A DNA stretch of 17,853 nucleotides, from assembly GCA_022703765.1 (NCBI GenBank), contig JAKJHQ010000001.1, positions 1-17,853 of the forward strand, given 5' to 3'. The notes under the pieces are model-generated. The model was not told the origin of the DNA, did not search any database, and was given only the letters and a program-made list of their open reading frames with translations. Origin of the DNA: Candidatus Wallbacteria bacterium. Its GTDB lineage: Bacteria; Muiribacteriota; UBA9980. This document shows, in pieces, positions 1 through 15,246 of the stretch (positions within the stretch are counted from its first letter, which is position 1; each line of letters starts with the position of its first letter). The translations under genes were made by a program, and so were the position numbers.

Positions 1-2867
1 AAATTTGTCGTACTCGTCCGCTGGCGCATTCTCTTTTCTAACGCGTCAATTAAATTATCGCGCTTTTCAGCGATTTCGTCTTCTATCGCAAATATGTGCT
101 CGCGCATTTTCCGCTTTTTCTGCTCTAGCTTTGCGATCTGCTCCTGCAGGCCTCCCTGTTCCTCGAGAGTGGGCGCCTGCCTCGCCTGACGCTGAAGTTC
201 GCGTATCTGACGCTTTATGTCGTCGAGCTCCTTCTGGGCGGCAATCTCCATATCCTCGGCCCATTTATCGAGCTGGTCGCGAGCTTCGCTGAAGTGGCGA
301 TTATTTTCTTCAAGGTTTCTGGCGATCGTCGCATTGACATGACGCTCGGTTTCAAGTCTCAGTCTTTCGGCCGTTTTACCGTCGATTTTATCGAGCGCCT
401 GATTTACCGAAGCACCGCAGTTGAATAGTTTTTCGCATGTCTGATGATCTATATTGCCGCCGGAATCGTCAAAAGCTGAAAAGAGCAAATATTCATCACT
501 TTCAAACGAATCGATCTTTAAATGTGATAAATTAAGCCAGCCGGCCTTTCCTTTTAGGCCTTCAATGACGGTATTTTTAAAAGCATGGTTCGTAACATCG
601 AATGATACTTCCGAAGGCGGGCAATCGGCGTCTTTAGCGCGGTTTATTGAAAATTCGCCGAGCGGATGGCTCAGGCGGTATAAAAATTCACCGAGCGCAT
701 TATCTTTGTTTTTGGATATCAGATAATATGTTCCGATAGAAATTTTCTTGTCGGGTGTTTTAGAGAGCGCGAAGGCGAGTTTTTCATCGTCGAATTTAGC
801 GAACTCCGCGAGTGAATATTTCGTTACCGCCCAGAACAACCGGCCTATACGGTCTAATTTATCACGAGTGCCGAGTAAATTGACTTTAAGACGCTCATGA
901 ACGTCTTCATCGAAATGCTCGAGCAATAATTTACGGGTGTCCTTCATCTTAATCTTTATCTGTTCGTCAAGCTCCGCCTGCAATTTCGCGAACGCCGCTT
1001 CTATTTCGGCCGTACTCCTGCACTGCTGGTATATCTCGAGCACACGCCGCTCGAAATCGACGCCCGATTCAATCGAGCCCAGAACGTCGTCTGACGCGCC
1101 GAATAACCCTGTAAATAGATTAAACTTGTTTTCGAGCAATTCGTAAACACGCCTGTCGGCTTCGTTTTTTTCGTTTAAAAAATTGATGACGACGACGTCA
1201 TGCTTCTGACCATAACGGTGACATCTTCCTATGCGCTGCTCGATTCGCTGAGGGTTCCAGGGCAGATCGAAATTTATCACGAGCGAGCAGAATTGAAGGT
1301 TAATACCTTCAGAAGCCGCTTCTGTGGCGAGCATTATGCACGATTCATCACGGAAATGGTCAATTATGGCCGTGCGCGAATCGATGCTGCGCGATCCTGA
1401 AACGCGACCGGTTTTTTTGTTTTTTTCAACCCACTGGTTATAAATCGAAGTCGAGCCTGCGTCGTCATTGCTTCCATTGAATAACAATACTTTACCCGCA
1501 TAGCCGCTGGCCTCGAGAAATTCTTTAAGATAGTCCTGCGTTCTTCGCGATTCGGTAAAAATTACGGCTTTTTTAGCCGCGCCCATTTCTTCCATTTTTG
1601 TAAAGCCTATTTCAAGCGCTTTGATCAATGCTTTCGCTTTGGTATCGACGCCTATTCCTCGCGCCCAGCGAATGTAGCCCTCGATTTCGTCGATTTCGGC
1701 TTTTAATTTATTAATATCGATTTTCGGTTCTTCGGTATTGGCCGCTTCAAGCGCCTCATCGGATTTTTCTACTTCAAAGTCTTCCTCGTCTTCGAGTATT
1801 TCATCGAGCAGATCGTCGTCAAGCGTTTCATTCAATATCAATCGGTCAACGACGCCGGCATTTTTTTGGGTTTCTTCGAGAAGCCGCTTCAATCTGTCGC
1901 GCATGATCTCAAGAGTGCCGGCTACGGCCCGCGGCGACGACGCCAGAACTTTACGCACGATCAAAATCAAAAGATGCTTTTGGTTGTTCGGTATTGCATA
2001 ATTGTCATCTTTTTTTAAAAAGTCGGAAATGGCCTCGTATAATTTATGCTCCTGATCGGTAGGTTTAAAAGGCCTTGTTATAAGTTTTCTTTCGGTATAG
2101 CGAATGTATTCGAGCACCTGGCGCCGTAAAGTCCGCCAGCAGAAAGACCTGATTCGATGGCGCAGCCCTTCCAGATCGCCGCCGTAATTTACATATTGCG
2201 TCCGAAACGATGGAAGATCGCCGAAAAATCTTTCATCTATCAGCAGTGAAAGCCCGTATAATTCGAGCAGTGAGTTTTGCAGCGGCGTCGCCGTCAGCAA
2301 TACTTTTCGCCGGTCTTCGGTCGCCCATTTGATCTTCTGGCCTATGCGGTTACTCTGACGATAAGAGTTTCTTAACTTGTGCGCTTCATCTATTACCACA
2401 AGGTCCCAGGGCGTCTGTTTTATCACGTCAGCCTTCGCTCCGGCAAAATGCATGGAACAAACTACAACGGCATTATTTTTAAACGGATCAGGGTTTCCGT
2501 TTTTAACCTGTTCGCGGTGCGTTTTGGCATCGAGAACGGTCGTCGGAAGGTTGAATTTTTCTGAAAGCTCGATCGCCCATTGTTTTCTGATCGACGCTGG
2601 AGTGATTACAAGAATTTTTCTGCGCCTTTCAGCCCAATGCTGGCATATCACAAGCCCGGCTTCGATGGTCTTGCCTAGCCCGACTTCATCCGCCAGCAAA
2701 ACACCCTTAGAAAGAGGCGAGCGCAGAGCGAATATGGCAGCTTCTATCTGGTGCGGGTTCAAATCGACGCAGGCGTCGAAAAGCGCATTGCCGAGGCGGT
2801 CGATAGACCGGCCGCCGGTGCGCGAAAGCTCATAAGCGAAGTATTTGGCGTGAAATGGAGTGGTCAT
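1..2867 (-). CDS. SNF2-family (DEAH-box) helicase with a C-terminal coiled-coil extension. It is 3'-partial: the C-terminus lies beyond the window start.
   Basis: I translated the reverse complement by eye from the ATG at 2867-2865. The N-terminus reads MTTPFHAKYFAYELSRTGG...DLNPHQIEAAIFAL...LLADEVGLGKTIEAG (SNF2_N motif I, Walker A). A DEAH box (VVIDEAHKLRN) and a TATPLQNSLLELY block follow. The Helicase_C motifs ATEAASEGINLQ and WNPQRIEQRIGRCHRYGQ lie near nt 1200-1500. No stop appears in this frame down to position 1. The plus-strand ORFs the track lists in this region are shadow ORFs. Confidence 0.85.
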   Translation of the reverse strand, partial: MTTPFHAKYFAYELSRTGGRSIDRLGNALFDACVDLNPHQIEAAIFALRSPLSKGVLLADEVGLGKTIEAGLVICQHWAERRRKILVITPASIRKQWAIELSEKFNLPTTVLDAKTHREQVKNGNPDPFKNNAVVVCSMHFAGAKADVIKQTPWDLVVIDEAHKLRNSYRQSNRIGQKIKWATEDRRKVLLTATPLQNSLLELYGLSLLIDERFFGDLPSFRTQYVNYGGDLEGLRHRIRSFCWRTLRRQVLEYIRYTERKLITRPFKPTDQEHKLYEAISDFLKKDDNYAIPNNQKHLLILIVRKVLASSPRAVAGTLEIMRDRLKRLLEETQKNAGVVDRLILNETLDDDLLDEILEDEEDFEVEKSDEALEAANTEEPKIDINKLKAEIDEIEGYIRWARGIGVDTKAKALIKALEIGFTKMEEMGAAKKAVIFTESRRTQDYLKEFLEASGYAGKVLLFNGSNDDAGSTSIYNQWVEKNKKTGRVSGSRSIDSRTAIIDHFRDESCIMLATEAASEGINLQFCSLVINFDLPWNPQRIEQRIGRCHRYGQKHDVVVINFLNEKNEADRRVYELLENKFNLFTGLFGASDDVLGSIESGVDFERRVLEIYQQCRSTAEIEAAFAKLQAELDEQIKIKMKDTRKLLLEHFDEDVHERLKVNLLGTRDKLDRIGRLFWAVTKYSLAEFAKFDDEKLAFALSKTPDKKISIGTYYLISKNKDNALGEFLYRLSHPLGEFSINRAKDADCPPSEVSFDVTNHAFKNTVIEGLKGKAGWLNLSHLKIDSFESDEYLLFSAFDDSGGNIDHQTCEKLFNCGASVNQALDKIDGKTAERLRLETERHVNATIARNLEENNRHFSEARDQLDKWAEDMEIAAQKELDDIKRQIRELQRQARQAPTLEEQGGLQEQIAKLEQKKRKMREHIFAIEDEIAEKRDNLIDALEKRMRQRTSTTN

Positions 2868-2990
2868 TAATAATTCCGTCACTTAACCTGGATATTATAT
2901 AATACCGCTAAATTATACTATAATTTAAACAAAATATGAAGTAAAATTTGATAATTTAGCAATAAAAAAGCGACGAGTATTTTACTTATT
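2868..2990 (-). promoter_or_regulatory. AT-rich upstream region of the SNF2 helicase gene. It probably carries a sigma70-type promoter, including a minus-strand TATAAT around 2912-2917.
   Basis: A non-coding stretch with very low GC lies immediately 5' of the helicase ATG. On the minus strand the sequence reads ...tatagTATAATttagcgg.... I could not identify a clear -35 element. Confidence 0.3.
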
Positions 2991-3125
2991 CATGGCTCGG
3001 TTAAAATCCCGTATGCCTTATTTTTTCATGTGCTTATCTGAAAAAATTCGTCCATCGCCTCATATGGTATTTTTTCAATACCCTTGCTGGCGGCCGCTCG
3101 ATACCATTCGACCGGTTTGCCGCAT

Positions 3126-3159
3126 AGAAGTCTCGCCGGCGACTTCGAGAGACTTCAAT
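3126..3159. other. Near-perfect inverted repeat or hairpin (gaagtctc-N14-gagacttc, with an internal palindrome tcgccggcga) in the 290-bp gap between the FGE-like gene and the helicase promoter.
   Basis: Read directly from the sequence: gaagtctcgccggcgacttcgagagacttc. It has 8-bp arms and a self-complementary GC-rich core. No T-run follows, so it is not a canonical intrinsic terminator. Confidence 0.35.
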
Positions 3160-3282
3160 TATCGAAACGCTTAAATAACTGGCAATCCAGTCATGTGCTG
3201 ATGATTGTAGTTGCCGCTCATCATTGTGCCGTAACGAAAACACAAATATTTTTGTCATCGTCAATTTTGTTGAAATGTCATT

Positions 3283-4422
3283 TTAAGAAAGGCAAACTCT
3301 AAAACCGAGGCTGTTATTATGATATGAAGGGGTGAAATTAATATAGCGAAGGGCCGACCGGCAATTTTCGGGAAGGCTGTCCCAGCCGCCGCCGCGCGCG
3401 ACGCGATTAGATCCTGTGACGGGCCCTTCAGGGTCGGTCTGAAACTGTTTTGAATAACTGCCGTACCAATCGGCGCACCATTCCCAGACGTTGCCGCACA
3501 TGTCATATAATCCCCATTTGTTGGGTTTTTTAAGCCCTACCGGGCACGTCGATTTTGAATTCCCTGCATACCAGCAGTAATTTCCGTCAAAATCATATCC
3601 CCAGTAATGCGTCGAAGCAGTTCCGGCGCGGCATGCATATTCCCACTCGGCCTCGGAAGGCAGATGGAATTTTTCTTCAGCCAGTTTCATGCCGTTGAGT
3701 TTCACAATGAAATTCCGGCAATCGTTCCAGGAAACATTTTCCACGGGATGATTACGGCTCTTTTTAAAATGGCTCGGGTCGCTTTTCATGATTATTTTAT
3801 ATTGTTCACGGGTCACCGGGTATTTGCCGATCCAGAATCCTTTCGTGATTTTGACTTTATGCGCCGGCTTTTCATCATCGCGCCCGTTATCATCGCCCAT
3901 TATAAAAGCGCCAGGCGCAATATACAACATGTCGAGCGCAACGCCGGCGCCTAAATAAAAAGACCTGGCGGCGCCGGTTTTATAAACCTTAATTACAGGC
4001 GGATCAGCCGATGAATTTTCTTTTCGAGTGTAATTATCGCGGCCGTCGCGGCTATCGTTGCCATTGCGGTAATCATCCTCACGATTTGAATTGGATCGGT
4101 TAAAACGATCTTCAGTGATCAATTTCAAAGATAGCGCGATCAGATTAACCGTCGAACCGGCTAATTCGTTTTTTAATCCATGTTCTTCGGCTAAACGATT
4201 GGCAAGCCTTTTCAACAAGGACTCCAGCGGGATATTTTCGTTATAACTCAGCAATTCTTTCGCTACCCCGCTTCGAACCGCGGCCATGACAAGGTTTATC
4301 TCACGCTTATAAGCGCCGCAAAGGTCCTTTAGCAGACCTTCGAGCCTTTTTTCGTCAAGGTATATCAGATTTCCATGATTTTCTAATATTTCGAAAAGTT
4401 TAATTTTTACTAGATCATTCAT
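3283..4422 (-). CDS. Two-domain protein. The N-terminal ~100 aa form a helical adaptor-like domain that is shared with the TPR protein at 9156-10307. The C-terminal part is a formylglycine-generating-enzyme-like (FGE-sulfatase/SUMF1/DUF323) domain.
   Basis: A 379-aa ORF. The C-terminal part carries FGE-family hallmarks: HKVKITKGFWIGKYPVTREQY, VSWNDCRNF, LPSEAEWEYACRAG, YDMCGNVWEWCADWY, RVARGGGWDS and a terminal GFRVCLS. The start ATG overlaps the stop of the upstream gene in an ATGA arrangement at 4419-4422, which indicates translational coupling. Confidence 0.8.
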   Translation of the reverse strand: MNDLVKIKLFEILENHGNLIYLDEKRLEGLLKDLCGAYKREINLVMAAVRSGVAKELLSYNENIPLESLLKRLANRLAEEHGLKNELAGSTVNLIALSLKLITEDRFNRSNSNREDDYRNGNDSRDGRDNYTRKENSSADPPVIKVYKTGAARSFYLGAGVALDMLYIAPGAFIMGDDNGRDDEKPAHKVKITKGFWIGKYPVTREQYKIIMKSDPSHFKKSRNHPVENVSWNDCRNFIVKLNGMKLAEEKFHLPSEAEWEYACRAGTASTHYWGYDFDGNYCWYAGNSKSTCPVGLKKPNKWGLYDMCGNVWEWCADWYGSYSKQFQTDPEGPVTGSNRVARGGGWDSLPENCRSALRYINFTPSYHNNSLGFRVCLS

Positions 4423-4808
4423 CGGTCGCTACCGGAGCTGATGTTATCGATTGAGCCGGACAGTTCGCCTTTGCCGCCGCACCAGCGGCACGTCACGAAT
4501 TTTACGACGCCGTCCCAGCAGTTAATTTTGCCGCAGGAGCATTTGAATATACCTTTCGACTCGCAATAAGGGCAGCCTTTGTAAGTTTCACCAAAATCAA
4601 AACTGCCGGCTATCGTTGTTTTATCGTAGCCTTCTTTGCTGGCCTGGTTTTCTTTTACCGGAAACGCCCAATCGCCAATCCATCGGTTCCGTGATTTTTC
4701 CTCGAACCGTATGCCGTAGAGCTTGCCGGTTTTAAGGCAGCGAACGGCCGCGACGGCCACGTTAAGAAGCGGAAAGCCTTTTTCTTTATTTTCCCTGAAC
4801 TCGTTCAT
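4419..4808 (-). CDS. Small Cys-rich zinc-ribbon protein and fourth gene of the TerY-P-type operon.
   Basis: A 129-aa ORF containing CPYC...CSCGKINCWDG...CRWCGGKG. It lies 4 bp after the kinase stop and overlaps the next start. Its C-x-C-G...C-W-D pattern resembles the zinc ribbon in the C-terminal tail of the kinase (CKCGAEN...CWDC). Confidence 0.6.
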   Translation of the reverse strand: MNEFRENKEKGFPLLNVAVAAVRCLKTGKLYGIRFEEKSRNRWIGDWAFPVKENQASKEGYDKTTIAGSFDFGETYKGCPYCESKGIFKCSCGKINCWDGVVKFVTCRWCGGKGELSGSIDNISSGSDR

Positions 4809-4812
4809 TATG

Positions 4813-6129
4813 CTACGCCCTTATTTCGCCCGTGGCTTTGCCGAAGTTGATCTTCAGGCCGTTAAGTATCGGCGCGTTCCTGCCGGGCTCAACGTCTTTT
4901 AAAGTGCCGTCCGGCATTGTGATATTCCACTTTTCGCTCGAATCGTTCTTCAGACCCCATTGCCCCGGTTTATTCGGGTTTTGATTCACTTCGGCCACTA
5001 ATATTGAAAAATCGAAGATCTTACTGTGATCGTCGATGTGGTGAGGATGGATTTTAGTGTCGTAGTTGAGCATCACTATATTGCCGCCGATATTTATTCT
5101 CGGAGGAAGCGTCATCGCTTTCCGGCAATCCCAGCATGTAAGTGATTTATTCTTTTGAAGTTTTTCCTTATCATAAAAATTCTCGGCGCCGCACTTGCAG
5201 TACATTACCGAGTCGAGAAGCCTTATCAGGGCCATGCGCCATTCGCTTTCGCGCACCCGGCCGTTGACCGGATCTTTTATTCCGGTAGTAAAGGCTTTCA
5301 TGAAAAGGTTCTTGATGAATTCCGGATAAATATCCCAGAAGGCGATGGCGTTGTCGTGATAACCTTTTACCGGCCGGTTGGAGTCGTCCGCCGGATCGTA
5401 AATAAAGACGGGCTCGGTGCCGTAAAGTTTGTTCATGGCCGGCAGGTCGAAACATTTGATGTCCGACTCTTTCTTGCCCTCGAGCGGATGGCTGGTCATG
5501 AGTATGTAAAATAAAAGAACGGCGAGGGAGTAAAGATCGGTATCCTTGTTCGGCTTCGAATCGCCGCGAACGACCTCGGGCGCCATGAAGCGGGGAGTAC
5601 CGAGAACTCCGCCGTCGCTCTGGCCGTCAATCGACACGTTATCGTTGTCGCATATCAGGACTTCGCCCGTATTCGGGTCGAAAAAAGCATTGCCGAATGA
5701 AATATCCCTGTAGCAAAGGCCTTTTGAATGAAGCTGAAGAAAGCTGTTGGCTAGTTCGAAACCGACCCTCACGAGCACCGCTAATTTTGGCGATATGCGG
5801 CGTTTCATGAGGTCCACTATATTGCCGAACCTTTTCTCGCGCAGCGGCATGACGTATCCAAATCCGGGCGTTGACGACTCAGTGACGATCTCGGCCGGCC
5901 AGAGGAACCTGGCGTTAGGCGCGCCTTTTTCGATTAGTTTTTCAAGCGCGGTTCGCTGCTGAGGAGTGGCTGAATTAGGATAATACCATTTCAGCGCGAC
6001 CGCCTGCCCGCCCAGATCGGCCTTATAAACTTCGCCCTGGCCGCCGCCGCCTAAAAATTCTCCCACGCGGCAGTCTAATTTGGATATTTCAGTCTTGACG
6101 ACCTGATTTTTTTTTAAGATCTCGCTCAT
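4813..6129 (-). CDS. Atypical Ser/Thr protein kinase (the TerY-P kinase) with a C-terminal zinc-ribbon-containing extension.
   Basis: Glycine loop LGGGGQGEVYKA and a VAIK-equivalent, VALKWY. The catalytic-loop motif is CYRDISFGN (YRD instead of HRD), and ICDNDN replaces DFG. An APE motif is present (GTPRFMAPE). A C-terminal ~150 aa segment contains CKCG...CWDC. Confidence 0.85.
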   Translation of the reverse strand: MSEILKKNQVVKTEISKLDCRVGEFLGGGGQGEVYKADLGGQAVALKWYYPNSATPQQRTALEKLIEKGAPNARFLWPAEIVTESSTPGFGYVMPLREKRFGNIVDLMKRRISPKLAVLVRVGFELANSFLQLHSKGLCYRDISFGNAFFDPNTGEVLICDNDNVSIDGQSDGGVLGTPRFMAPEVVRGDSKPNKDTDLYSLAVLLFYILMTSHPLEGKKESDIKCFDLPAMNKLYGTEPVFIYDPADDSNRPVKGYHDNAIAFWDIYPEFIKNLFMKAFTTGIKDPVNGRVRESEWRMALIRLLDSVMYCKCGAENFYDKEKLQKNKSLTCWDCRKAMTLPPRINIGGNIVMLNYDTKIHPHHIDDHSKIFDFSILVAEVNQNPNKPGQWGLKNDSSEKWNITMPDGTLKDVEPGRNAPILNGLKINFGKATGEIRA

Positions 6130-6188
6130 AATATCAACCTTTTTACTTCGCGAAAATTTTTGTGAACTAAACTTTTCGAGTTATTACC

Positions 6189-7112
6189 CTATATGTATTT
6201 TTTGTAGTCTTTTATTATCATTCCCAGAGTGACGTCGTCGCCCGACATTTTAGCCGAAGCTTCCAGCCATTCCCTGATGCTGCATTCTGTCGAGACCGCG
6301 CCTTCGCTTCGTAAAATGTCCAGAATGTCCTTTCCTACCTTAAAAAAATTATCATCATCACGGAATGAGTTGGAATAACCGTCGGTCGAGATCAGTATCA
6401 GCTCGGGAAATTTAAAATCAGCATTCACCGGGTAGAATTTAATTCGGAACTCGTTCCACGGGTCTTTCGAACAAAACGAAGTGGTTTCGTTGGCGATGAG
6501 TTTTTCGTCCCTGGCGACCGCCCTGACCGTCGTTCCGTCCTCGTAAACGCTTAAAATATCGCCGTCGCCGAGCTGCATGTAAAACATGAACGCATTATGA
6601 ATGCCGGCCATCAGAAGCGTCGAACCGTAAACTATTTTATTGTCCTTTAAAACTGCCTCGACGGACCTCGCATCCGACTTTTTCTCTAATTCCTTCAATT
6701 CTTCTTCGGTAAACGGGTTTCTTGAAACGTCGGTCTCGACCTCTTCGCGCCAGGCCTGAACGATCTTACGCGGGAGCCTGTTCTCGAGTTCGTCTTTGAT
6801 AAGGGACAGATTGTCGATATTATTCTTCGAGCATTCGTCAAAAAAATCCCTGACGGCTCTCACGGCTACTTTGACCGCATACTCCGAGCCGGTATGGCTT
6901 CTGAAACTCTTGACGCTTCCATGGCCGTCGGATATGGCCAGGACCAGAGGAATTGTATGGCCGGCAGCACATTCCGTCACCCAGTGGTTTTCGGCGTCCT
7001 GATTCTTGAGCCCCACCCGGGCGTGGGACGAGCCTATGACGCTTCCTGATATGATATTCCACGAAACGATCTTTTTATCGATCTGGTCGGGCATAAATTT
7101 TTCGATCACCAT
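6189..7112 (-). CDS. PP2C-family Ser/Thr phosphatase (the TerY-P phosphatase).
   Basis: PP2C motifs are present: GLKNQDAE, LAISDGHGS, QLGDGDI and ISTDGYSNSF. The start overlaps the vWA gene end by 7 bp. Confidence 0.85.
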   Translation of the reverse strand: MVIEKFMPDQIDKKIVSWNIISGSVIGSSHARVGLKNQDAENHWVTECAAGHTIPLVLAISDGHGSVKSFRSHTGSEYAVKVAVRAVRDFFDECSKNNIDNLSLIKDELENRLPRKIVQAWREEVETDVSRNPFTEEELKELEKKSDARSVEAVLKDNKIVYGSTLLMAGIHNAFMFYMQLGDGDILSVYEDGTTVRAVARDEKLIANETTSFCSKDPWNEFRIKFYPVNADFKFPELILISTDGYSNSFRDDDNFFKVGKDILDILRSEGAVSTECSIREWLEASAKMSGDDVTLGMIIKDYKKYI

Positions 7113-7807
7113 ACGTCGCCAGAACCGGCGGGATCCTGGGCCGGCGCCTGCGGAATAGGAACGTTGGTCGAGCCGTTCTGGGCGTCTTTAGCCTGGCTGG
7201 CAGGCGCGGAAGCCGATTTAAGGACGGCGGTAGAGACCCATTTAATATATTTAACGAGCGATTCGGGATTATTCGCCTCGAGCGGCTTTATCTCCGGATG
7301 GCCGATGAACTTCTGCAGCACGTCTTTATCGGCATCGGAGCCTATGGCTATCGATATGCGGACCGATTTTCTGCCCCAGGGCAGATCCATAAGTTCTTTC
7401 AGGCCGGACGCATAATCGTCCGTCGGCTGGCCGTCGGAGATCAGTACCAGCACGGGAGGCAGCGCCCTGTCCGACATCGGGGGGATCTTTAACTGTTCAG
7501 CCGTCATTTTAAGCGCGTGGCCGAGATCGGTAACGCCATCCGCGCTGAGGTCGGACCATTTGAAATCTCTGACCGGCGTCGGCTGCGTAATGTGCCACTG
7601 GGCACCGCTGGAAAACTTTATGGCGCGCACCAGCACTTCGGCGTTGGGGTTCTCGTCCGCTACTTTTTGCATGTGAGGTATAGACTCGCGTATTGCGTTA
7701 TTCAGAGACTGGATTTTGCCGTCAACACTCATCGAGCCCGAGCAGTCGCAGATCCATATAAAATGAAGCGGACGGGTCGCAAGCTCGCCGCCTGGAAGTT
7801 TTGCCAT
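7106..7807 (-). CDS. TerY-like von Willebrand factor A (vWA) domain protein, the first gene of the TerY-P triad.
   Basis: A MIDAS motif (DCSGSMS, i.e. DxSxS) follows a hydrophobic strand (HFIWICD). The vWA motif LVLISDGQPTDD is present. On the minus strand a GGAGGA RBS (plus-strand tcctcc at 7817-7822) sits about 9 nt upstream of the ATG. Confidence 0.85.
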   Translation of the reverse strand: MAKLPGGELATRPLHFIWICDCSGSMSVDGKIQSLNNAIRESIPHMQKVADENPNAEVLVRAIKFSSGAQWHITQPTPVRDFKWSDLSADGVTDLGHALKMTAEQLKIPPMSDRALPPVLVLISDGQPTDDYASGLKELMDLPWGRKSVRISIAIGSDADKDVLQKFIGHPEIKPLEANNPESLVKYIKWVSTAVLKSASAPASQAKDAQNGSTNVPIPQAPAQDPAGSGDVW

Positions 7808-7842
7808 AATTAATCATCCTCCCGTATATTTCGAATAAGATT

Positions 7843-7872
7843 ATTATAATATCTAATACGGAGGGTTGTCAA
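7843..7872 (-). promoter_or_regulatory. Near-consensus sigma70 promoter for the vWA-PP2C-kinase operon. The -35 TTGACA is at 7872-7867, followed by an 18-nt spacer and the -10 TATAAT at 7848-7843.
   Basis: Read on the minus strand: TTGACAaccctccgtattagataTTATAAT. The position is appropriate, about 35 nt upstream of the vWA ATG. Confidence 0.45.
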
Positions 7873-7878
7873 TATAAA

Positions 7879-7898
7879 TGTTATAATAACTTATAACA
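7879..7898. promoter_or_regulatory. Perfect 8-4-8 palindrome (tgttataa taac ttataaca) just upstream of the -35 of the TerY-P operon promoter. It is a candidate operator or regulator binding site.
   Basis: The inverted repeat is read directly from the sequence. It lies in the divergent intergenic region between the vWA gene and the DUF4236 gene. Confidence 0.35.
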
Positions 7899-8035
7899 TT
7901 AATTTACTCATTATTCAAAAATACAGTTCAAAAATTCATTATAAATTTATATTTAAAAAATAGATTGAATATGTTACAATTATTGTAAATTCGCAAAACA
8001 TAAGGCGATTATTTAGGTTCGAATTCGGGATTGAT

Positions 8036-9142
8036 ATGGGGTTTTATTTCAGAAAATCTAAAAAAATAGGGCCGTTCAGGATCAACTTTTCAAACAAGGG
8101 GATCGGCTTCTCTTCAGGCGTAAAAGGCGCACGCATTTCCACCAATTCAAAAGGAACTTATATAAATATGGGAAGCAACGGCCTCTATTACAGAGAAAAG
8201 ATCGGGCCGGGAATACCGCAGTTGAGTTTTTCTAACTTATTCGGATTGAATAAAAATAGCGGCAAGGGCCGAGCGCCGAACATCCCGAACGCCATTAAAG
8301 CGCCCGCCATAGACGATGGCGTCGATATTAACAATCTGCTTGCCGGGTCAAACGCTCAACTCGTAACGAAAATTAACGATAAAATAAAAACGGCCGGGAT
8401 CATGCCTCTGGTCGTTGCGTTCATAGTTATTTCAGGTTTTTTCGTCATCGTTTCCTATCCGTCTAAAATTTTGATAGTTATGGTCATCGCGATCATATCC
8501 TTCGTTGCGGCCAACATTTACGACAACTCACGGAGAACTTCCGAATTATTTTACGATCTGGACGATCCCGCGCGCGACGATTTCGACAAACTAAACCAGG
8601 CGTTATGCTCGTTATCCACGGCGCGCTTGTTGTGGCAGGTCAATGTGGCCCGCTCCGCAACGCCGTCGGCCGACAATAAGTACGGCCTCAAAGTTACGGG
8701 CCGCCGTGGGATCACTCTGTCAGACGCGCCTCCGCTTTTCATCGAGACCAATCTCGAGGTGTTTTCGATAGATATAGGCGAAGCCTCGCTTTATTTTTTA
8801 CCCGACAGGGTTCTGGTCTGCAAAAATTCGACCTATGCTTCGATCGGCTACGGCGATTTAAAAATAAAGTATACGGCGCTGTCCTTCGCCGAATATGAAA
8901 CCGTCCCGGACGACGCCGGCGTCATATCGCAAACCTACCTGCATGCGAACAGCGACGGCTCTCCCGATAAAAGATATTCGAACAACCCGCAGATACCTGT
9001 CGTTTCTTACGGGCTGCTCAAGTTATATTCAACCGGGGGATTGGAAATAAATCTGATGGTCTCGAATAATATTATCGCCGAAAAATTTTTTAACGATCTT
9101 TCTTCATGCATGAAAAGCATCAGTTCGAGGCTTTTGCCGTAA
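8036..9142 (+). CDS. DUF4236-family protein. It has the conserved N-terminal MGFxFRKSxKIGPFRINxS module, two central transmembrane helices and a C-terminal domain of unknown function.
   Basis: The N-terminus MGFYFRKSKKIGPFRINFSNKGIGFSSGVKGARIS matches the DUF4236 signature. A hydrophobic stretch, IMPLVVAFIVISGFFVIVSYPSKILIVMVIAIISFVAANIY, is consistent with two transmembrane segments. Confidence 0.7.
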   Translation: MGFYFRKSKKIGPFRINFSNKGIGFSSGVKGARISTNSKGTYINMGSNGLYYREKIGPGIPQLSFSNLFGLNKNSGKGRAPNIPNAIKAPAIDDGVDINNLLAGSNAQLVTKINDKIKTAGIMPLVVAFIVISGFFVIVSYPSKILIVMVIAIISFVAANIYDNSRRTSELFYDLDDPARDDFDKLNQALCSLSTARLLWQVNVARSATPSADNKYGLKVTGRRGITLSDAPPLFIETNLEVFSIDIGEASLYFLPDRVLVCKNSTYASIGYGDLKIKYTALSFAEYETVPDDAGVISQTYLHANSDGSPDKRYSNNPQIPVVSYGLLKLYSTGGLEINLMVSNNIIAEKFFNDLSSCMKSISSRLLP

Positions 9143-9155
9143 ATGCGGCGCGGCC

Positions 9156-10307
9156 CTACTGAACATTTGGGGCGAGCTTCGCCAATTCCGCCTTGCATTC
9201 ATCGAATTCGGGGCAAAGTTCCAGGGCGCGGTTATAGTAAAACGCGGCCTTTTCGCGGTCGCCTCTCTGACGGTATGTGTTAGCGAGCCTAAAGCAATAC
9301 TCGTCGTTATCGGGAAAAAGCCTTAAAGCTTCCTCGTAATATTTAACGGCTGAGGCGTAGTCATCAATTTGATAACAGCAGTTTGCCAGTTCAAAGTAAT
9401 AAAAATTATTATTCGGATCTATATCAACAGCTTTTTTCAAATATTTGACCGCTTCGGAATAGCCGTTCCGGGCTATCTTGATCCTGGCCGTCTGATAGTA
9501 ATATTCGGATTTTGAGTCATCGATCGATAACGCGGTATCAATATTTTTAAGAGACCTATCATAGTCAATTAATTCAAGATACGCGCAGGATAATTTGTAA
9601 TAGTAGCCGGCGGCGTAAGCAGTAGCTTGCGCGGTTAATTTTTCATAGTCGGCGGCGGCGGCCTTAAAATTCGCGATGTTAAAATTAGAGTTGGCGCGGT
9701 ACAGATAAGCCATAGAATAGTCAGGGTTCAGCTCGAGCACATGGCTGAAATCGTCGATCGCTTTTTCAAAAAAACCCAGATTATAGTAAGCCAGGCCGCG
9801 GGCATTGTATAGTTCGAAGTAAAACTGGTCGTATTCTAGAGCCTTATCGAAGCAGACAAGTGCCTGCTCATATTTAAACTCACTGACGAGTTCCAGGGCG
9901 CGGTTGTAATGAGTAAAAAAATCCCTTTCAGGGCGTTGCGGCCCGCTGAATACTATCCGTTCCGTCACGGGCTCCTGAGAATCTTCCAGAGAGTCTTCCG
10001 GCAATATCCCGAATGCGAACGCCCAGGAGTCGACTGCCCAGAATGCGCATTCTTTGGTAGTACCGTAATTGTCGATGATCTTTTTTGCAATGGACTGGCG
10101 GTCAAGCTGATAAGGAACCCTTTTTGCGTTTATCGCCGCGACGGATTCTTTTTGCGCGCATAGAAGCAGAAATATCTCGAGTTTGCGCGAACCGAAAAGA
10201 TCCTTAAAAAGACTTTCCAGGCGCTTCGGATCGTTTACGACATTAAAGCCGTAAATGTCAATAATTTCCTTTAATTTTTTTCGCACGTTATTGCCGTTTT
10301 TATCCAT
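9156..10307 (-). CDS. TPR-repeat protein. Its N-terminal ~100-aa domain is paralogous to the N-terminus of the FGE-like protein.
   Basis: 383 aa. There are multiple TPR-like repeats (for example AYYNLGFFEKAIDDFSHVLELNPDYSMAYLYRANS and ALRLFPDNDEYCFRLANTYRQRGDREKAAFYYNRALEL). The N-terminus, KLKEIIDIYGFNVVNDPKRLESLFKDLFGSRKLEIFLLLCAQKESVAA, aligns with the FGE-like protein segment KLFEILENHGNLIYLDEKRLEGLLKDLCGAYKREINLVMAAVRSGVAK. Confidence 0.85.
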   Translation of the reverse strand: MDKNGNNVRKKLKEIIDIYGFNVVNDPKRLESLFKDLFGSRKLEIFLLLCAQKESVAAINAKRVPYQLDRQSIAKKIIDNYGTTKECAFWAVDSWAFAFGILPEDSLEDSQEPVTERIVFSGPQRPERDFFTHYNRALELVSEFKYEQALVCFDKALEYDQFYFELYNARGLAYYNLGFFEKAIDDFSHVLELNPDYSMAYLYRANSNFNIANFKAAAADYEKLTAQATAYAAGYYYKLSCAYLELIDYDRSLKNIDTALSIDDSKSEYYYQTARIKIARNGYSEAVKYLKKAVDIDPNNNFYYFELANCCYQIDDYASAVKYYEEALRLFPDNDEYCFRLANTYRQRGDREKAAFYYNRALELCPEFDECKAELAKLAPNVQ

Positions 10308-10391
10308 AACTATTGCTTTACAATCCTTCGATAATTTTATACCATAAAATTAATATATTTTCAATATTATCTTTTGACGTATTACATATTT

Positions 10392-10442
10392 TTGACATTT
10401 TTGATATAAACGATTGACATCAAAATAGGTTAGTATTATAAT
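10392..10442 (+). promoter_or_regulatory. Consensus sigma70 promoter for the zorA-like gene. The -35 TTGACA is at 10414-10419, followed by a 17-nt spacer and the -10 TATAAT at 10437-10442. A second TTGACA lies upstream at 10392-10397.
   Basis: Read directly from the sequence. An AGAGG RBS at 10462-10466 sits 6 nt before the ATG at 10473. Confidence 0.5.
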
Positions 10443-10472
10443 ACCGAATATTTATTCATAAAGAGGTAATTT

Positions 10473-12560
10473 ATGCAGGAATATTCGAATTTAATAAATC
10501 TTACGATGTGCTGCTTAATAGGCATTGCATTTTTGATTTTCAGGATATCTCTGATCATCCCCATCAAGAATTTGAGGAAAAAACTTACATTTATCAATAA
10601 CAGGCTGACCTTATTCAAGTTCAATGACGAAACCGAGCTGGCCGTATTTTTAAAAGAAAATTTTAAAAATTTCGCCACACTTGCGGAAATTTATACGGAC
10701 TTCATAGAAGAAAGGTCTTTGAATATAATTGAATATTCTGGCAAAACATACAGCCACATCAAACATTCCGATTTTTTCAGCGCCGAAAATATTTCAGAAA
10801 AATTGCTCAATTTAAGGATGATAAATTCCATACCCGGCATAATGACAGGCCTTGGCATACTTGGCACCTTCATCGGCCTTATAATAGGCATTTCTTCAAT
10901 CCATATAACGAAGGGCGAGATATTACTAAACGACATTCAATCCCTTCTGTCGGGCATGAACATAGCCTTCTTAACTTCGATCGTTGGAATAATACTCGGA
11001 CTGTACTGGATCCTTAATGAAAAGCGCCATTATAAGAACCTTTTGATCGAGATTGAAAAATTTAATATCAACATAGAAAAGTACTATCCGACGATAGATC
11101 TCGAGCACATCATCATAAAAAGCATGATCTCGAACATTAAGAACAACGAGATCCTGCCCCAGAAATTTGAAAGCGTAAATAAGACGCTTGAGCTGACGGC
11201 CGACAGGATAATCGAATCTCAAAACAAAAGTTTCTCTTTGATATCATCGAGCATAAACTCAGGTCTTAAAGACGAATTCCTGCCTGAAATAAAGAAAGCG
11301 ATCGATCAATCGTTCGAATACACCAATAAGGCGATGAGCTTTCTGACGGAGTTCACCGCGACGCTTGACACACTGAAAGACGATCTTTTGAGGGTTAGCG
11401 CGGAGCACAAAGAGAACGCAATAACCGTCAAAACCGAGATCAAAGCCATAATGAACTCCATAAAGGAAAGTTTCGAGATAACTTCTAAATTCAGGGATTT
11501 CGCCAAGACGCTCAACGCAACGTTTGAAAAGGCGACGGGCAACATGAATCAAACTGTAAATAAAATGAATGAATTTTCAAATAAAATAGTCGAGTCGGCC
11601 GATAAATTCGAGGCCGGGTTAAATCAGTTCTCTGAAAAATTTCTGAACGGGAAACAGCAGGTCGAGATAAATATCAAAAAACTAGCGTCAGAAATATCGA
11701 TTTTGACTAATAGCTTCAATGATACTTTTGAAAAGATCAAGGTCGAAGCGGTTGATTTCAGCGGCGAACTCGATCGTATCGTTCATAAGGCCATTTTCAT
11801 ATTCAACAAACAACTCAGCTGCTATGAAGGCCTGCCAAATAAAATAGCGGACGTCGTGGCCAACAAGATCAACAGGGCGTTCGACAGCAACAAACTCGCA
11901 GATTCGGTAAAGGCGATAAGCGACGAGCTGGTGATCAAGTTTATCGGTATAAAGGATATGCTGAAGAACGCGACCGACAGCCTCGGCGGCAGCATCGCCA
12001 ATCTGGGCGACACCTTTGAAGTATATTCGCAGCAGATGAAAAGCCTGCCGGAAGATATCAGCATTGAAATATCCAAAAAAATCCAGACCGCGTTCGACAG
12101 TTCTGATAACTTCAAGATGTTCGGCGAGTTCAAAAACTCTCTTAATGAATTTAACAATAATTTCTCGGCGCAGGTCAAGGAAGCCGCCAGGGCCATCGGC
12201 GGCTCAGTAATGTCGAGCGTCAAGGACATTGAGTCGTTCCTCATGAAGACCAATAAGATTTTTGGCGATTTCCAGCGTTCCATAAATGGCATCGAAGACA
12301 AAATGCGCGAGACAGGCGAATTCTTAGAGAAATCAGCCGGCCTGCTGGGAACGAACCTGAGCCAAAGTTTCAACCAGACATTCTCCGTTTTTGACGAGCA
12401 GTTGTCAAAAATTTCAATGCGCCTGAGTGGCACTATAACGGAGATCGATTCAGCGGTTAAGGATATTCCAGCAGTGATAAACGAATTTCAGAACGCGCTC
12501 GACTCGCAGATCGGTTTAATCCAAAAGGAAGCGGTAAAAAATAATAATTTAAAACAATAA
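10473..12560 (+). CDS. zorA: ZorA-like protein, with a MotA/TolQ/ExbB-type proton-channel transmembrane core and a ~500-aa cytoplasmic coiled-coil tail.
   Basis: 695 aa. The transmembrane segments are LINLTMCCLIGIAFLIF, SIPGIMTGLGILGTFIGLIIGISSI and GMNIAFLTSIVGIILGLYWIL, a MotA/ExbB-like signature. A long heptad-rich alpha-helical tail follows. The gene sits immediately upstream of a MotB/OmpA partner, as in Zorya. Confidence 0.75.
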   Translation: MQEYSNLINLTMCCLIGIAFLIFRISLIIPIKNLRKKLTFINNRLTLFKFNDETELAVFLKENFKNFATLAEIYTDFIEERSLNIIEYSGKTYSHIKHSDFFSAENISEKLLNLRMINSIPGIMTGLGILGTFIGLIIGISSIHITKGEILLNDIQSLLSGMNIAFLTSIVGIILGLYWILNEKRHYKNLLIEIEKFNINIEKYYPTIDLEHIIIKSMISNIKNNEILPQKFESVNKTLELTADRIIESQNKSFSLISSSINSGLKDEFLPEIKKAIDQSFEYTNKAMSFLTEFTATLDTLKDDLLRVSAEHKENAITVKTEIKAIMNSIKESFEITSKFRDFAKTLNATFEKATGNMNQTVNKMNEFSNKIVESADKFEAGLNQFSEKFLNGKQQVEINIKKLASEISILTNSFNDTFEKIKVEAVDFSGELDRIVHKAIFIFNKQLSCYEGLPNKIADVVANKINRAFDSNKLADSVKAISDELVIKFIGIKDMLKNATDSLGGSIANLGDTFEVYSQQMKSLPEDISIEISKKIQTAFDSSDNFKMFGEFKNSLNEFNNNFSAQVKEAARAIGGSVMSSVKDIESFLMKTNKIFGDFQRSINGIEDKMRETGEFLEKSAGLLGTNLSQSFNQTFSVFDEQLSKISMRLSGTITEIDSAVKDIPAVINEFQNALDSQIGLIQKEAVKNNNLKQ

Positions 12561-12638
12561 TTTAAAGAAACAACAACAGAAGCAAAAGTAAAAACTATAT
12601 TAACAATAATAGTTAATAATACAAATATAGGTATCAAC

Positions 12639-13460
12639 TTGTTCAACAAGCAATTAAAACAACACGATTTAAGCGATAAAAACGACTTTCTCATCTCGAT
12701 CTCAGACCTGATGACCGGGATAATGATGATCTTCGTGCTCACCCTTATCGCGGTCTTATACAGCAAAACGACCGATGTGGTTCAATACGTAAGAGAAATC
12801 GAGGCCAAGAAGGAAACATTAGCTAAAATACAATCCGAACTCGACCATAAAACCGAACAATTAAAGCTTAAAGAAAACGCGCTCGACTCAAAGGAGATCG
12901 AACTAAAATATTACAAAGACCAGATCGAAAAAATTATAGGCATCAAGAGCTCTATAATCAATCTGATCAAGGAAAAATTCGAACGGTCGTCGTCTAATCT
13001 GAAACTGGCAGTCGATCCGTTCACAGGGGCGATCCGGATAAGCGGCGATATTTTATTCGATACCGACTCCGACGCCATTAAAGAAGAATTCAAGCCTCTG
13101 CTAAAACTGCTGCTGGAAACTTACGTCAACATCCTATTCGACACTCAGGAGTTCATAGACCATCTCGCAGAAATAGTCATAGAAGGCCATGCGGACAACC
13201 GCGGCGACTACATTTATAATCTTGATCTTTCGCAGCGCCGCGCGCAGTCTATCATGAAATATTTCATTCAGGTGGTCGATCCGGCCAAAAAAGAGCTTTT
13301 CCAGAAATTCGTGACGGCGAACGGCAAATCGTTCAGCGTTCCGATCAAAGACCCGACCGGGAACGTCGATCTTGACAAATCACGCCGCATCGAGGTCAAA
13401 TTCAGGTTAAAGGACGACGAGGCGTTGAAAGAACTTTCGAAATTACTGGATCAAAAATAA
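12639..13460 (+). CDS. zorB: ZorB-like protein, with a MotB-type plug and transmembrane helix plus a C-terminal OmpA-like peptidoglycan-binding domain. The start codon is TTG.
   Basis: 273 aa. The DFLISISDLMTGIMMIFVL segment (MotB plug and transmembrane helix; compare the ZorB/MotB WISYADLMT motif) is present. The OmpA-like motifs GHADNRGDYIYNLDLSQRRAQSI are also present. Confidence 0.8.
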   Translation: MFNKQLKQHDLSDKNDFLISISDLMTGIMMIFVLTLIAVLYSKTTDVVQYVREIEAKKETLAKIQSELDHKTEQLKLKENALDSKEIELKYYKDQIEKIIGIKSSIINLIKEKFERSSSNLKLAVDPFTGAIRISGDILFDTDSDAIKEEFKPLLKLLLETYVNILFDTQEFIDHLAEIVIEGHADNRGDYIYNLDLSQRRAQSIMKYFIQVVDPAKKELFQKFVTANGKSFSVPIKDPTGNVDLDKSRRIEVKFRLKDDEALKELSKLLDQK

Positions 13461-13477
13461 GCGGGCAGTGACAAACT

Positions 13478-14689
13478 ATGGCATCCGACTCGAATCGCGA
13501 CAAGGGAATATTTATAAATTTAAGCAGCTGCACGCCGACCAGACTTATCGAAGCGGCCGAGACGATCGCGCGTACGCATAAGCGGCACTCTAAAAATGAC
13601 GAGACGCTTTCGGCCGCGTCGGGGCCCGACAACTTTGACGAATTGCTCAAGAAGATAAAGCGCGGGGGCCGCAACGAACTCGTTAAAATAGCGTTCGCGC
13701 TCACCAGGCGGGAGGCTTTATTTTTATTGACCGCTTTAAAGAACGAAGATGATTCATTCTGCGATAAAGTCCTCGCCATAGTAGGACTTCGCAGACAGAT
13801 ATTCAAATTCTCGCTTTTCTGGAACGCGCTGGTGTTATCGCCCGAAAATAAAAATCTTTATTCATTGACGATCGCAACCACGTCGGCCGGAGGCGATCAA
13901 AAAAGGCCGGGCACGGAGGGCATAAATATGGTCGAAGCAGAGAGATTTTTCATCAAAAGTCAGCCGGCCTCTTTCATCGACGGCCTATTCATTTTATACC
14001 AGAATAAAAAATACATATTGAGTAACTTTTGCGCCTATTATTCGATACACAAAGACGGCTTTTTACACGGGCTGATGATAAAGAAGATTATGACGGGGTA
14101 CGAGCCTGAATTCGGAAGGCTTGAGGGCGACATCCAAATTTTTTCATATTTAACGAAGCACCTGTCAAAAGAAGAGGCGATTCAATTCGCCGGAAAATAT
14201 TTCAGCCAGACACCCGACGATGCCTGGAACGAGTTGATATTGAATTATTTTTTCCACCTGCTCGGAACGCCTTCCAACATGGACAACTGGAATTTCGTCA
14301 CGGGACCGGTTCTGAAAAAACTGCAGAACAGATACAGCATCGCCGAGATAAGAAAATTTTTCGACAAGCTCGACAAAGACAACGTCCGGTTCAACTTCTG
14401 GCAAAAGAACTACGGCCAGCGCTTCACGAACGCCTATAAATTCAGCCAGATAAACGCCATTCTAATGTATATCGAAAACATCGCGATCCTCGAATTCGCC
14501 AACATCGGCAACGCCTGTTACGTTTATAAAGCCGAATTCGCCGACCTGCTGATCAGAAAATTTTACAACTCATCATACGAGTCAAAACTGAAATATCCAG
14601 AACAAGCTCTGTTCAGGGTCATACACAAGCAGGACTGGCAGTACGAAGCGCTCGCGAGGATAAATAGCGCTATAGGTAATAAAATCTAA
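13478..14689 (+). CDS. Hypothetical 403-aa protein co-directional with zorAB. It may be a ZorC-like (EH-signature) protein or a novel Zorya partner. I found no nuclease or NTPase motifs.
   Basis: An ORF lies 17 bp after zorB on the same strand. The sequence is alpha-helical and aromatic-rich with no HNH, Walker or PD-(D/E)xK motifs. The ZorC-like assignment rests only on position and length. Confidence 0.55.
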   Translation: MASDSNRDKGIFINLSSCTPTRLIEAAETIARTHKRHSKNDETLSAASGPDNFDELLKKIKRGGRNELVKIAFALTRREALFLLTALKNEDDSFCDKVLAIVGLRRQIFKFSLFWNALVLSPENKNLYSLTIATTSAGGDQKRPGTEGINMVEAERFFIKSQPASFIDGLFILYQNKKYILSNFCAYYSIHKDGFLHGLMIKKIMTGYEPEFGRLEGDIQIFSYLTKHLSKEEAIQFAGKYFSQTPDDAWNELILNYFFHLLGTPSNMDNWNFVTGPVLKKLQNRYSIAEIRKFFDKLDKDNVRFNFWQKNYGQRFTNAYKFSQINAILMYIENIAILEFANIGNACYVYKAEFADLLIRKFYNSSYESKLKYPEQALFRVIHKQDWQYEALARINSAIGNKI

Positions 14690-14708
14690 TCATTTAAAAT
14701 CAGGACTT

Positions 14709-15239
14709 TTATATATCATCTTCTTCGTCTTCTTGTTCAAATCTTCGTTCGCCTTCATACCGATCATAATATCCGTTATTTTCTTCAAATTCCTCCTCTT
14801 CAGTTATTTCTTTGAGCCTCCTTGTATATTCTAAGTAATCTCTTTCTTCATCAGCACTTATTTCATATTCAATCTCCTCTTCTTTTCTGAGACATATTTC
14901 TTCGTCATCATCCATAAGATCATCTAGATCGATTTCATAATCTCCTGATTCATGTATAATTTGTTCTTCGACATCACGATCTATTTCCTCTTCAGTTAAA
15001 TTTTCTATTTCTTCTTCATCAATTTCCTTTTCTTTTAAGTATTCTTTTTCTTCCTTTTCTTTTTCTCTTTCTTCTTTATTTCTAATTTCTCCTTCGGTTT
15101 CTTCAATATCACAACCACATATAGGACATTCACCGTCATCAGTTATATAACCATAATAACCACATTCCGGACAAGTAACTTCATCATCAAACAATATTAT
15201 ACTCCTATTTTCAAAACGTTGAAAAACATGATTATTCAA
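14709..15239 (-). CDS. Hyper-acidic zinc-ribbon protein (N-terminal CPEC...CPICGC followed by a ~130-aa Glu/Asp-rich tail). It is a candidate DNA mimic or regulator.
   Basis: 176 aa. About 45% of residues are D or E after the zinc ribbon. The gene is very AT-rich, with GAA/GAG codon runs. It starts 7 nt after the SF1 helicase stop. Confidence 0.65.
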   Translation of the reverse strand: MNNHVFQRFENRSIILFDDEVTCPECGYYGYITDDGECPICGCDIEETEGEIRNKEEREKEKEEKEYLKEKEIDEEEIENLTEEEIDRDVEEQIIHESGDYEIDLDDLMDDDEEICLRKEEEIEYEISADEERDYLEYTRRLKEITEEEEFEENNGYYDRYEGERRFEQEDEEDDI

Positions 15240-15246
15240 TCAGCAG

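Follow-up and report, generated by a model that had tools for sequence, protein, structure and literature searches.

The core of the defence system DISARM consists of the helicase gene drmA together with drmB (DUF1998, PF09369) and drmC (PLD, PF13091), and in class 1 DISARM an SNF2 gene comes first and an adenine methylase gene next (10.1101/2021.12.28.474362). The SNF2 protein HmaA defends alone and has a C-terminal NOV_C nuclease domain (PMC11232893). ZorD, encoded within zorABCD, likewise has an SNF2-type ATPase core, to which a nuclease domain and a long N-terminal region are added. Separately encoded superfamily 2 (SF2) motors standing beside a nuclease and a methylase, a layout shared with the locus described below, are found in the H-subunits of CglI and NgoAVII (PMC5861437) and in BrxHII of type 3 BREX (PMC12839542); the CglI H-subunit offers a precedent for a motor subunit with a gene of its own. 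We analysed a stretch of 17,853 nucleotides from Candidatus Wallbacteria bacterium (contig JAKJHQ010000001.1), hereafter the window, the left edge of which runs through a gene for an SNF2-family ATPase (1..2867, minus strand). This gene very probably heads an SNF2-Mod-Res operon, and we consider it likely that its product is the ATPase subunit of a three-gene Type III-like restriction-modification (R-M) system encoded in the order SNF2 (964 amino acids, aa), Mod (~1100 aa) and Res (~1100 aa).

The SNF2 gene and its linkage to Mod and Res

Translation of the window gave an open frame of 955 codons on the minus strand (2867..1) free of stop codons and frameshifts, in agreement with a first-pass annotation, made from the sequence alone, that had reported an SNF2 helicase gene here. 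The frame is missing from the mechanical list of open reading frames (ORFs) because it exits the left edge of the window; its start at 2867 agrees with the conserved N-terminus of its homologs (MxTxxHAKY...). A database protein of 964 aa (P0001), originating from a metagenome-assembled genome (MAG) named 'bacterium ADurb.Bin243', is ~99.9% identical to the window protein, differs from it in at least one residue (S for T at position 619) and ends in ...TSTTNLFTIRWKVI. As homologs are 962-967 aa long, only nine residues, those of the last nine codons, lie beyond the edge, and a pseudogene can be ruled out.

Both lobes of the ATPase were recognised by Pfam. Lobe 1 (SNF2-rel_dom, PF00176, E 2.5e-33) covers residues 39-296 (1980..2753, minus strand) and holds the motifs GLGKT (63-67), DEAH (160-163) and TATP (192-195), and lobe 2 (Helicase_C, PF00271, E 1e-21) covers residues 446-553 (1209..1532, minus strand), with motif VI, QRIGRCHRYGQ, at 544-554. 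All four motifs are intact and invariant across 48 homologs (alignment A1). The helicase core runs from about residue 29, where alignment to the DrmD_b profile begins (residues 29-671), and there is no N-terminal accessory domain, much as the first-pass annotation had described it with a start near residue 25. Pfam matched no nuclease family in the protein at E <= 0.01. The gene is a bona fide, intact SNF2 motor of a defence system.

To the left of the window the locus could be followed on a second contig, L085 (JGI 3300010346, 12,942 bp), found by an exact-protein match to the FGE-sulfatase-domain protein of the window. L085 is 99.1% identical in DNA to window positions 7250..1 and extends 5.7 kb past the window edge. 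On it a Mod gene (7287-10682, 1131 aa, PF01555) begins 10 nt after the SNF2 stop codon, and a Res gene with a ResIII match runs from 10824 to the contig end, where it is incomplete. The helicase had been described as stand-alone; L085 instead places it at the head of an R-M operon unrelated to the Zorya genes of the window, a result that the first-pass annotation had itself named as refuting its reading.

We identified SNF2 relatives at 369 places in a scan of one genome per species. The best 80 of these share 59-71% identity and come from many bacterial phyla, among them Thermodesulfobacteriota, Planctomycetota, Verrucomicrobiota, Chlorobi, Nitrospirae, Chloroflexi, Acidobacteria, Bacillota, Cloacimonadota and the candidate phyla radiation (CPR). 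Probing 84 SNF2-seeded loci with tblastn showed a Mod homolog on the same strand in all 71 loci with at least 1 kb of downstream sequence, and a Res homolog as well in 53 of the 54 with at least 5 kb; in the lone locus without Res (L066) Mod stops ~1.1 kb before the contig end, which may simply have cut Res off. Relatives of any other window gene, whether of the TerY-P-like, FGE, Zorya-like or remaining genes, were found in none of the 84 loci. In 51/75 loci no more than 150 nt separate the end of SNF2 from the start of the Mod alignment, and in some the stop and start codons overlap. The linkage also holds in the reverse direction, as a Mod-seeded search gave 24 plasmid records in which Mod is matched over nearly its full length, and 17 of them also hold SNF2, directly adjoining Mod in 16; the exception, from Hymenobacter, has the two ~5.6 kb apart. 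The gene order is permuted to Mod-Res-SNF2 on a Conchiformibius plasmid and is SNF2-Mod-Res in a Bacillus MAG. The SNF2 gene is inherited strictly together with genes for a methyltransferase and a helicase-nuclease, all catalytic motifs being intact.

Both partners resemble the subunits of classical Type III systems (EcoP1I/EcoP15I), and PADLOC files both as Type III. Mod, ~1100 aa long, carries the N6_N4_Mtase domain (PF01555), its homologs match PADLOC MTase_III (PDLC03646, E 1e-182 to 1e-251), and one of them (from locus L002) matches the solved Type III Mods 6k0w, 7dsu and 4zcf. In the L085 Mod DPPY (528) precedes FAGSG (830); judged from these motifs, motif IV stands before motif I in the β-class order of Type III Mods. 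Res (~1100 aa) matches PADLOC REase_III (PDLC03654, E ~1e-176) and has the ATPase motifs GSGKT, DEGH and QxxGRGxR. Its conserved C-terminal signature, E947...P-D995...(E/D)1012-P-(K/H)1014...K1025, reads as a PD-(D/E)xK-like nuclease, so that the nuclease of the system would lie in Res, joined to an SF2 ATPase as in classical Type III, and not in the SNF2 protein. The locus departs from the classical arrangement of mod and res in its conserved third gene and in an extra ~460-aa N-terminal region that is conserved in all long Mods. In classical Type III systems, an asymmetric site is hemimethylated and cleavage takes ATP and a pair of unmethylated sites in inverse orientation.

Operon variants, cargo genes and spread

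An extra cargo gene on the same strand is present between Mod and Res in 27/53 operons and between SNF2 and Mod in 13/75 (cargo-gene loci L001 and L008-L079). The families represented are RhuM, an AAA_21/AbiEii-like ATPase, DUF1016 with a YhcG PDDEXK nuclease, GmrSD_N, Fic/DOC, HTH_3 with Peptidase_M78, DUF4062 with HATPase_c_4, AIPR and a Ser/Thr kinase. These are the same kinds of hitch-hiking genes as occur in R-M operons; there is no such insert in the strain of the window (L085). A small helix-turn-helix (HTH) gene precedes the operon in 22/89 loci, and none is found in this window.

The partner genes vary in form as well. In Desulforamulus profundi (L094:11998-15132), where the order SNF2-Mod-Res is kept, three consecutive ORFs (145, 263 and 623 aa) take the place of the long Mod and match successive parts of its profile (E 6e-49, 5e-110 and 2e-213); this represents either a natural fission or a decaying gene. 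Four loci (L091, L092, L093 and L096) have 13-34 in-frame UGA codons per gene under code 11, and the frames of L091 and L092 are fully open under code 4 or 25; on this reading of UGA, recoded lineages carry a divergent SNF2 of the same family, with a C-terminus only ~30% identical to that of the window protein. The order in L091-L093 is SNF2, an unknown protein of 666-855 aa, a canonical short Type III Mod and a Res with RE_endonuc. We considered whether the 666-855-aa proteins are the split-off N-terminal region of the long Mod and rejected this, as BLAST and hidden Markov model (HMM) comparison detected no similarity.

The SNF2 protein was matched in 81 plasmid records, and in 45 the match spans 80% or more of its length; Klebsiella (conjugative IncF plasmids), E. 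coli and Salmonella are among the hosts of the best-matching records. Carriers of SNF2 recovered by the Mod-seeded search include Klebsiella pneumoniae IncF, E. coli and Citrobacter plasmids, the Salmonella plasmids coming from the SNF2-seeded search. On K. pneumoniae plasmid p19-10_01 (L097; NZ_CP023488.1, 17652-27404) the order is HTH-SNF2-Mod-Res and the SNF2 protein is 49% identical to that of the window; on IncF plasmids this arrangement adjoins ssb, psiB, psiA and parB. PGAP names the plasmid triad 'SNF2-related protein', 'DNA methyltransferase' and 'DEAD/DEAH box helicase family protein'. The family is nearly absent from phage genomes, where there was one partial match, and a metagenome scan with a distant member (P0188) returned one 1.1-kb fragment. 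A megablast of window positions 1-8000 found nothing in collections of plasmids and of E. coli genomes.

The C-terminal module and relation to known SNF2 proteins

Helicase_C is followed by a further 411 residues. We utilized AlphaFold2 to model residues 600-964, with a 76-sequence alignment (A2) as input, and obtained a confident model (predicted local distance difference test, pLDDT, 91.4; predicted template modelling score, pTM, 0.72); the full-length model was poor (pLDDT 66, pTM 0.33) and was left out of the fold searches. The modelled C-terminal module (residues ~604-964; 1..1058, minus strand, its last nine residues lying outside the window) opens with two long helices (~604-686) that lead into a β-rich domain (~690-825; 393..800, minus strand). 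An antiparallel coiled-coil hairpin (helices 830-897 and 901-947, ~65 residues per arm; 27..380, minus strand) juts from the β-domain, and a final β-strand (950-963) rejoins it. The long extension and the coiled coil had both been noted in the first-pass annotation, which placed the coiled coil at the terminus; in the model it is an arm projecting from the β-domain and no terminal tail.

Conservation within the module (alignment A2) falls on Y714, the motif R731-x-x-H-P-L736 and G776 in the β-domain, on W869, D872 and R922 in the hairpin and on W961 in the last strand, a pattern more in keeping with an interaction surface than with a site for catalysis or metal binding. The same alignment contains no conserved acidic/lysine nuclease motif in the module. 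A Cys/His block pointed out earlier in the extension is indeed present in the window sequence; across the wider family, C749 is mostly L or T, C817 mostly L and H808 mostly Q or P, and C811 is kept in 51%. A zinc- or metal-binding motif was ruled out on account of this lack of conservation.

A profile of the module had no credible match among Pfam families or PDB sequences, and its sole significant structural match was the C-terminal region of RapA (Foldseek E 2.1e-4, 345 aligned columns). Searching 1.84 billion representative proteins with residues 640-955 returned 1423 clusters at 50% identity (E <= 1e-3), many of the matches being short fragments that hold the module alone. Seven representatives were scanned with Pfam; all seven have an SNF2 core and in six the module is C-terminal. 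The module is specific to this SNF2 family. Two of the seven representatives are fusion variants, P0138 (1480 aa), with ~500 extra residues beyond the module that have no Pfam match, and P0191 (1375 aa), with an N-terminal HATPase_c_2 and DUF4325 (STAS-like) region before the SNF2 core.

Comparison with profiles of named SNF2 proteins placed DrmD variants closest, and every score fell below the curated NCBIfam cutoff: DrmD_b (NF038318) scored 690.8 bits against a cutoff of 950, aligning residues 29-671 to positions 23-649 of an 868-position profile, DrmD (NF038317) 285.4 against 610, RapA (NF003426) 188 against 576 and ZorD (NF041790) 70.8 against 1500, the last over the helicase core only. 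PADLOC ranked the proteins similarly, with DrmD (PDLC02619) at E 1.9e-208, HmaA at E 1e-59 over the core only and ZorD profiles at E 1e-25 to 1e-31, again restricted to the helicase core. Among solved structures matched by sequence, RapA was best (E 2e-45) and ZorD (8qy7) reached E 8.5e-20.

The SNF2 protein and DrmD_b are sisters that differ at the C-terminus, and the former is no DrmD, ZorD or RapA. Like DrmD_b of DISARM it has a closely related SNF2 core without a long N-terminal domain, leads an operon in which a DNA methyltransferase comes next and is part of a methylation-based defence system. The two differ over the last ~290 residues (~672-964), which cannot be aligned to DrmD_b and form the β-domain and coiled-coil hairpin, and in their partners, which here are a PF01555 Mod and Res in place of DrmMI (PF13659), DrmA, DrmB and DrmC. 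RapA provides the best solved-structure match of the core and the only structural match of the region behind the helicase. Its N-terminal region of ~115 residues, described as tandem Tudor-like domains (PMC12839542), is absent here, where the core starts at ~29-36 compared with ~150 in RapA; the long coiled-coil hairpin is an insertion relative to RapA, and the context is an R-M operon on mobile DNA rather than a housekeeping locus.

Proposed role, rival explanations and neighbouring systems

We propose the following role for SNF2 in the triad tentatively, with slightly less than even confidence in its specifics. Mod would mark host DNA at a short asymmetric site, and Mod-Res would detect unmodified sites on incoming DNA. 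SNF2 would dock on Mod-Res through its C-terminal β-domain and hairpin, which take the place of the DrmD_b C-terminus, and its ATP-driven translocation on double-stranded DNA would serve either long-range communication between sites or the clearing of DNA-bound proteins, after which the Res nuclease would cut. SNF2 would then be a separate motor ('H-type') subunit, a functional analogue of class 1 DrmD, type 3 BrxHII and the CglI H-subunit. It is possible, at a little short of an even chance, that SNF2-Mod-Res constitutes a distinct and unnamed class of ATP-dependent R-M that needs two SF2 motors, the Res ATPase and the SNF2 translocase, with the C-terminal module coupling the motor to Mod-Res. 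That restriction in such a two-motor system depends on translocation or protein clearing by SNF2, beyond the ATP-triggered sliding of classical Type III, is a conjecture that we hold with similar reserve.

Several observations weigh against these proposals. The window holds SNF2 alone, and the presence of Mod and Res in this exact genome is inferred from the 99.1%-identical L085. Res had no sequence match among solved proteins, EcoP15I Res included, so the 'Type III' label depends on motifs and the PADLOC/REBASE-derived profile. The triad is widespread and experimentally uncharacterised, and we infer a Type III-like R-M system in which SNF2 serves as a dedicated subunit; the suggested docking, translocation and need for SNF2 in restriction draw on linkage and analogy. 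On a Priestia megaterium plasmid (L099:3986-13121) a 981-aa protein joining a UvrD helicase and a PD-(D/E)xK nuclease replaces SNF2 upstream of the same long Mod and Res, and on two haloarchaeal plasmids (L100 and L101) no SNF2 relative lies within the 8-kb flanks of the long Mod and Res, other ATPase or helicase genes being found upstream. A need for SNF2 is therefore not universal in this Mod/Res lineage. The Priestia operon also suggests that the third-motor slot is exchangeable. Because this slot can be filled by a UvrD-nuclease, and because a DrmD_b-like motor here bears a different C-terminus, the data suggest that the C-terminal module is an adaptor assigning the motor to its partner system.

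Four other explanations of the gene were weighed against a place in SNF2-Mod-Res. It could be the drmD of a class 1 DISARM system with drmMI, drmA, drmB and drmC downstream, a reading favoured by the DrmD models being its best PADLOC and NCBIfam matches and by the shared opening of an SNF2 gene and a methylase gene. The first-pass annotation had suggested a DISARM-like motor, and the kinship with DrmD stands; membership in DISARM is nonetheless very improbable, as the DrmD_b cutoff is missed, the alignment stops at residue 671 and the C-terminus differs, and the methyltransferase is of the PF01555/MTase_III type and not PF13659. Neither PF09369 nor PF13091 was matched in the Pfam gene tables of seven loci (L001, L002, L085, L091, L092, L094 and L095), and the PGAP annotation of the plasmid loci L097 and L098 names no DUF1998 or PLD protein. 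The gene following Mod in L085 encodes a ResIII protein, and Res matches REase_III only, no DrmA model giving a match at E <= 0.001. Alternatively, the SNF2 protein might act autonomously beside an ordinary two-gene Type III R-M system, either as an HmaA-like single-gene defence or as a RapA-like factor recycling RNA polymerase. HmaA shows that an SNF2 protein can defend alone, databases call the protein RapA, and RapA is both its closest solved structure and the sole structural match of the module. We regard autonomy as unlikely: the RapA score is far below its cutoff and the RapA N-terminus is absent, Pfam matches neither NOV_C nor another nuclease, and the strict linkage to Mod and Res (71/71 and 53/54 loci) persists through permutation, on plasmids and across phyla, which would be unexpected for a housekeeping gene.

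The remaining two explanations attach the gene to its neighbours in the window. Upstream on the minus strand, Pfam identified genes for a VWA protein (7106-7807), a PP2C phosphatase (6189-7112), a Ser/Thr kinase (4813-6129), a small TerY_C protein (4419-4808) and, last, a 379-aa FGE-sulfatase-domain protein (3283-4422), which together form a TerY-P-triad-like operon (3283-7807). SNF2 lies directly downstream in the same orientation (7807..3283, then 2867..1), and the order recurs in contigs L085-L089, so it might be a DNA-directed effector of this operon; these contigs are of the same strain (99.1-99.4% identity) and give no independent support, relatives of the five genes occur in 0/84 SNF2 loci, and a 415-bp gap with a promoter-like site separates SNF2 from the FGE-sulfatase gene, leaving very little room for this possibility. 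The site, TTCATA-17 nt-TATAAT (2912..2940, minus strand), lies 45-73 nt 5′ of the SNF2 ATG and is a consensus match alone, from a scan that found five sites where 1.5 were expected. The gene had also been put forward as a displaced ZorD-like motor, the missing effector of the nearby ZorA-ZorB-ZorC-like genes, and it is true that the ZorA, ZorB and short EH-signature proteins of the window come without a ZorD, that ZorD is an SNF2 protein and that PADLOC ZorD profiles match in part. This idea was abandoned as next to negligible in probability, since the ZorD score is a small fraction of its cutoff, the match to 8qy7 is far weaker than that to RapA, a Mrr-like nuclease domain is absent and zorA lies 7.6 kb away beyond seven ORFs of mixed orientation. 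Relatives of the ZorA, ZorB or ZorC of the window occur in none of the 84 homolog loci, and a 76%-identical Zorya-like locus (L102) is without such an SNF2 gene. The SNF2 operon probably has its own promoter and stands independently beside the TerY-P-like and Zorya-like systems, in a region that looks like a defence island.

A number of further features were observed in the window. The VWA, PP2C, TerY_C and FGE proteins have no PADLOC match, and the TerY-P-like gene order is repeated in the same-strain contigs. Between the TerY-P-like and Zorya-like operons (8036-10307) the plus strand encodes a 368-aa DUF4236 protein and the minus strand a 383-aa TPR-repeat protein, neither with a PADLOC match. 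The Zorya-like region (10473-17853) encodes on the plus strand ZorA (695 aa), ZorB (273 aa) and the EH-signature protein (403 aa), which has weak ZorC matches and only two homolog clusters among 5.8 billion proteins. Behind these lie three convergent genes, for a 176-aa ORF, a 583-aa superfamily 1 (SF1) helicase with an MkoA-like C-terminus and a NOV_C protein that runs off the right window edge. The related locus (L102:455-10232) retains the entire layout including the convergent genes, and its NOV_C protein is a 1059-aa SACS and NOV_C protein (Tiamat/TmtA-like). The SF1 helicase and NOV_C nuclease pair may substitute for ZorD, and this is perhaps the more unusual feature of the window.

The assignment of the SNF2 gene removes a false lead, as it does not explain the ZorD-less Zorya locus, and shows that a three-gene R-M operon is interrupted by the edge of the window. 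Within the full-text literature we found no experimental or comparative description of the SNF2-Mod-Res triad, prior notice elsewhere, for example in REBASE, being possible; mentions there are incidental gene lists, such as that of a Cronobacter integrative element (PMC12757443). Current annotation splits the triad into 'RM type III' and an orphan 'DrmD/RapA/SNF2-related protein'. It is abundant (1423 module clusters, 369 genome places and 81 plasmid records) and has spread by horizontal transfer over many phyla and onto conjugative Klebsiella, Salmonella and E. coli plasmids. Were SNF2 dispensable, the triad would be merely another Type III variant. If SNF2 is required, the triad would offer a tractable model for accessory SNF2 motors such as DrmD and BrxHII in methylation-based immunity, and would hinder phage therapy and the transfer of plasmids among clinical Enterobacteriaceae.

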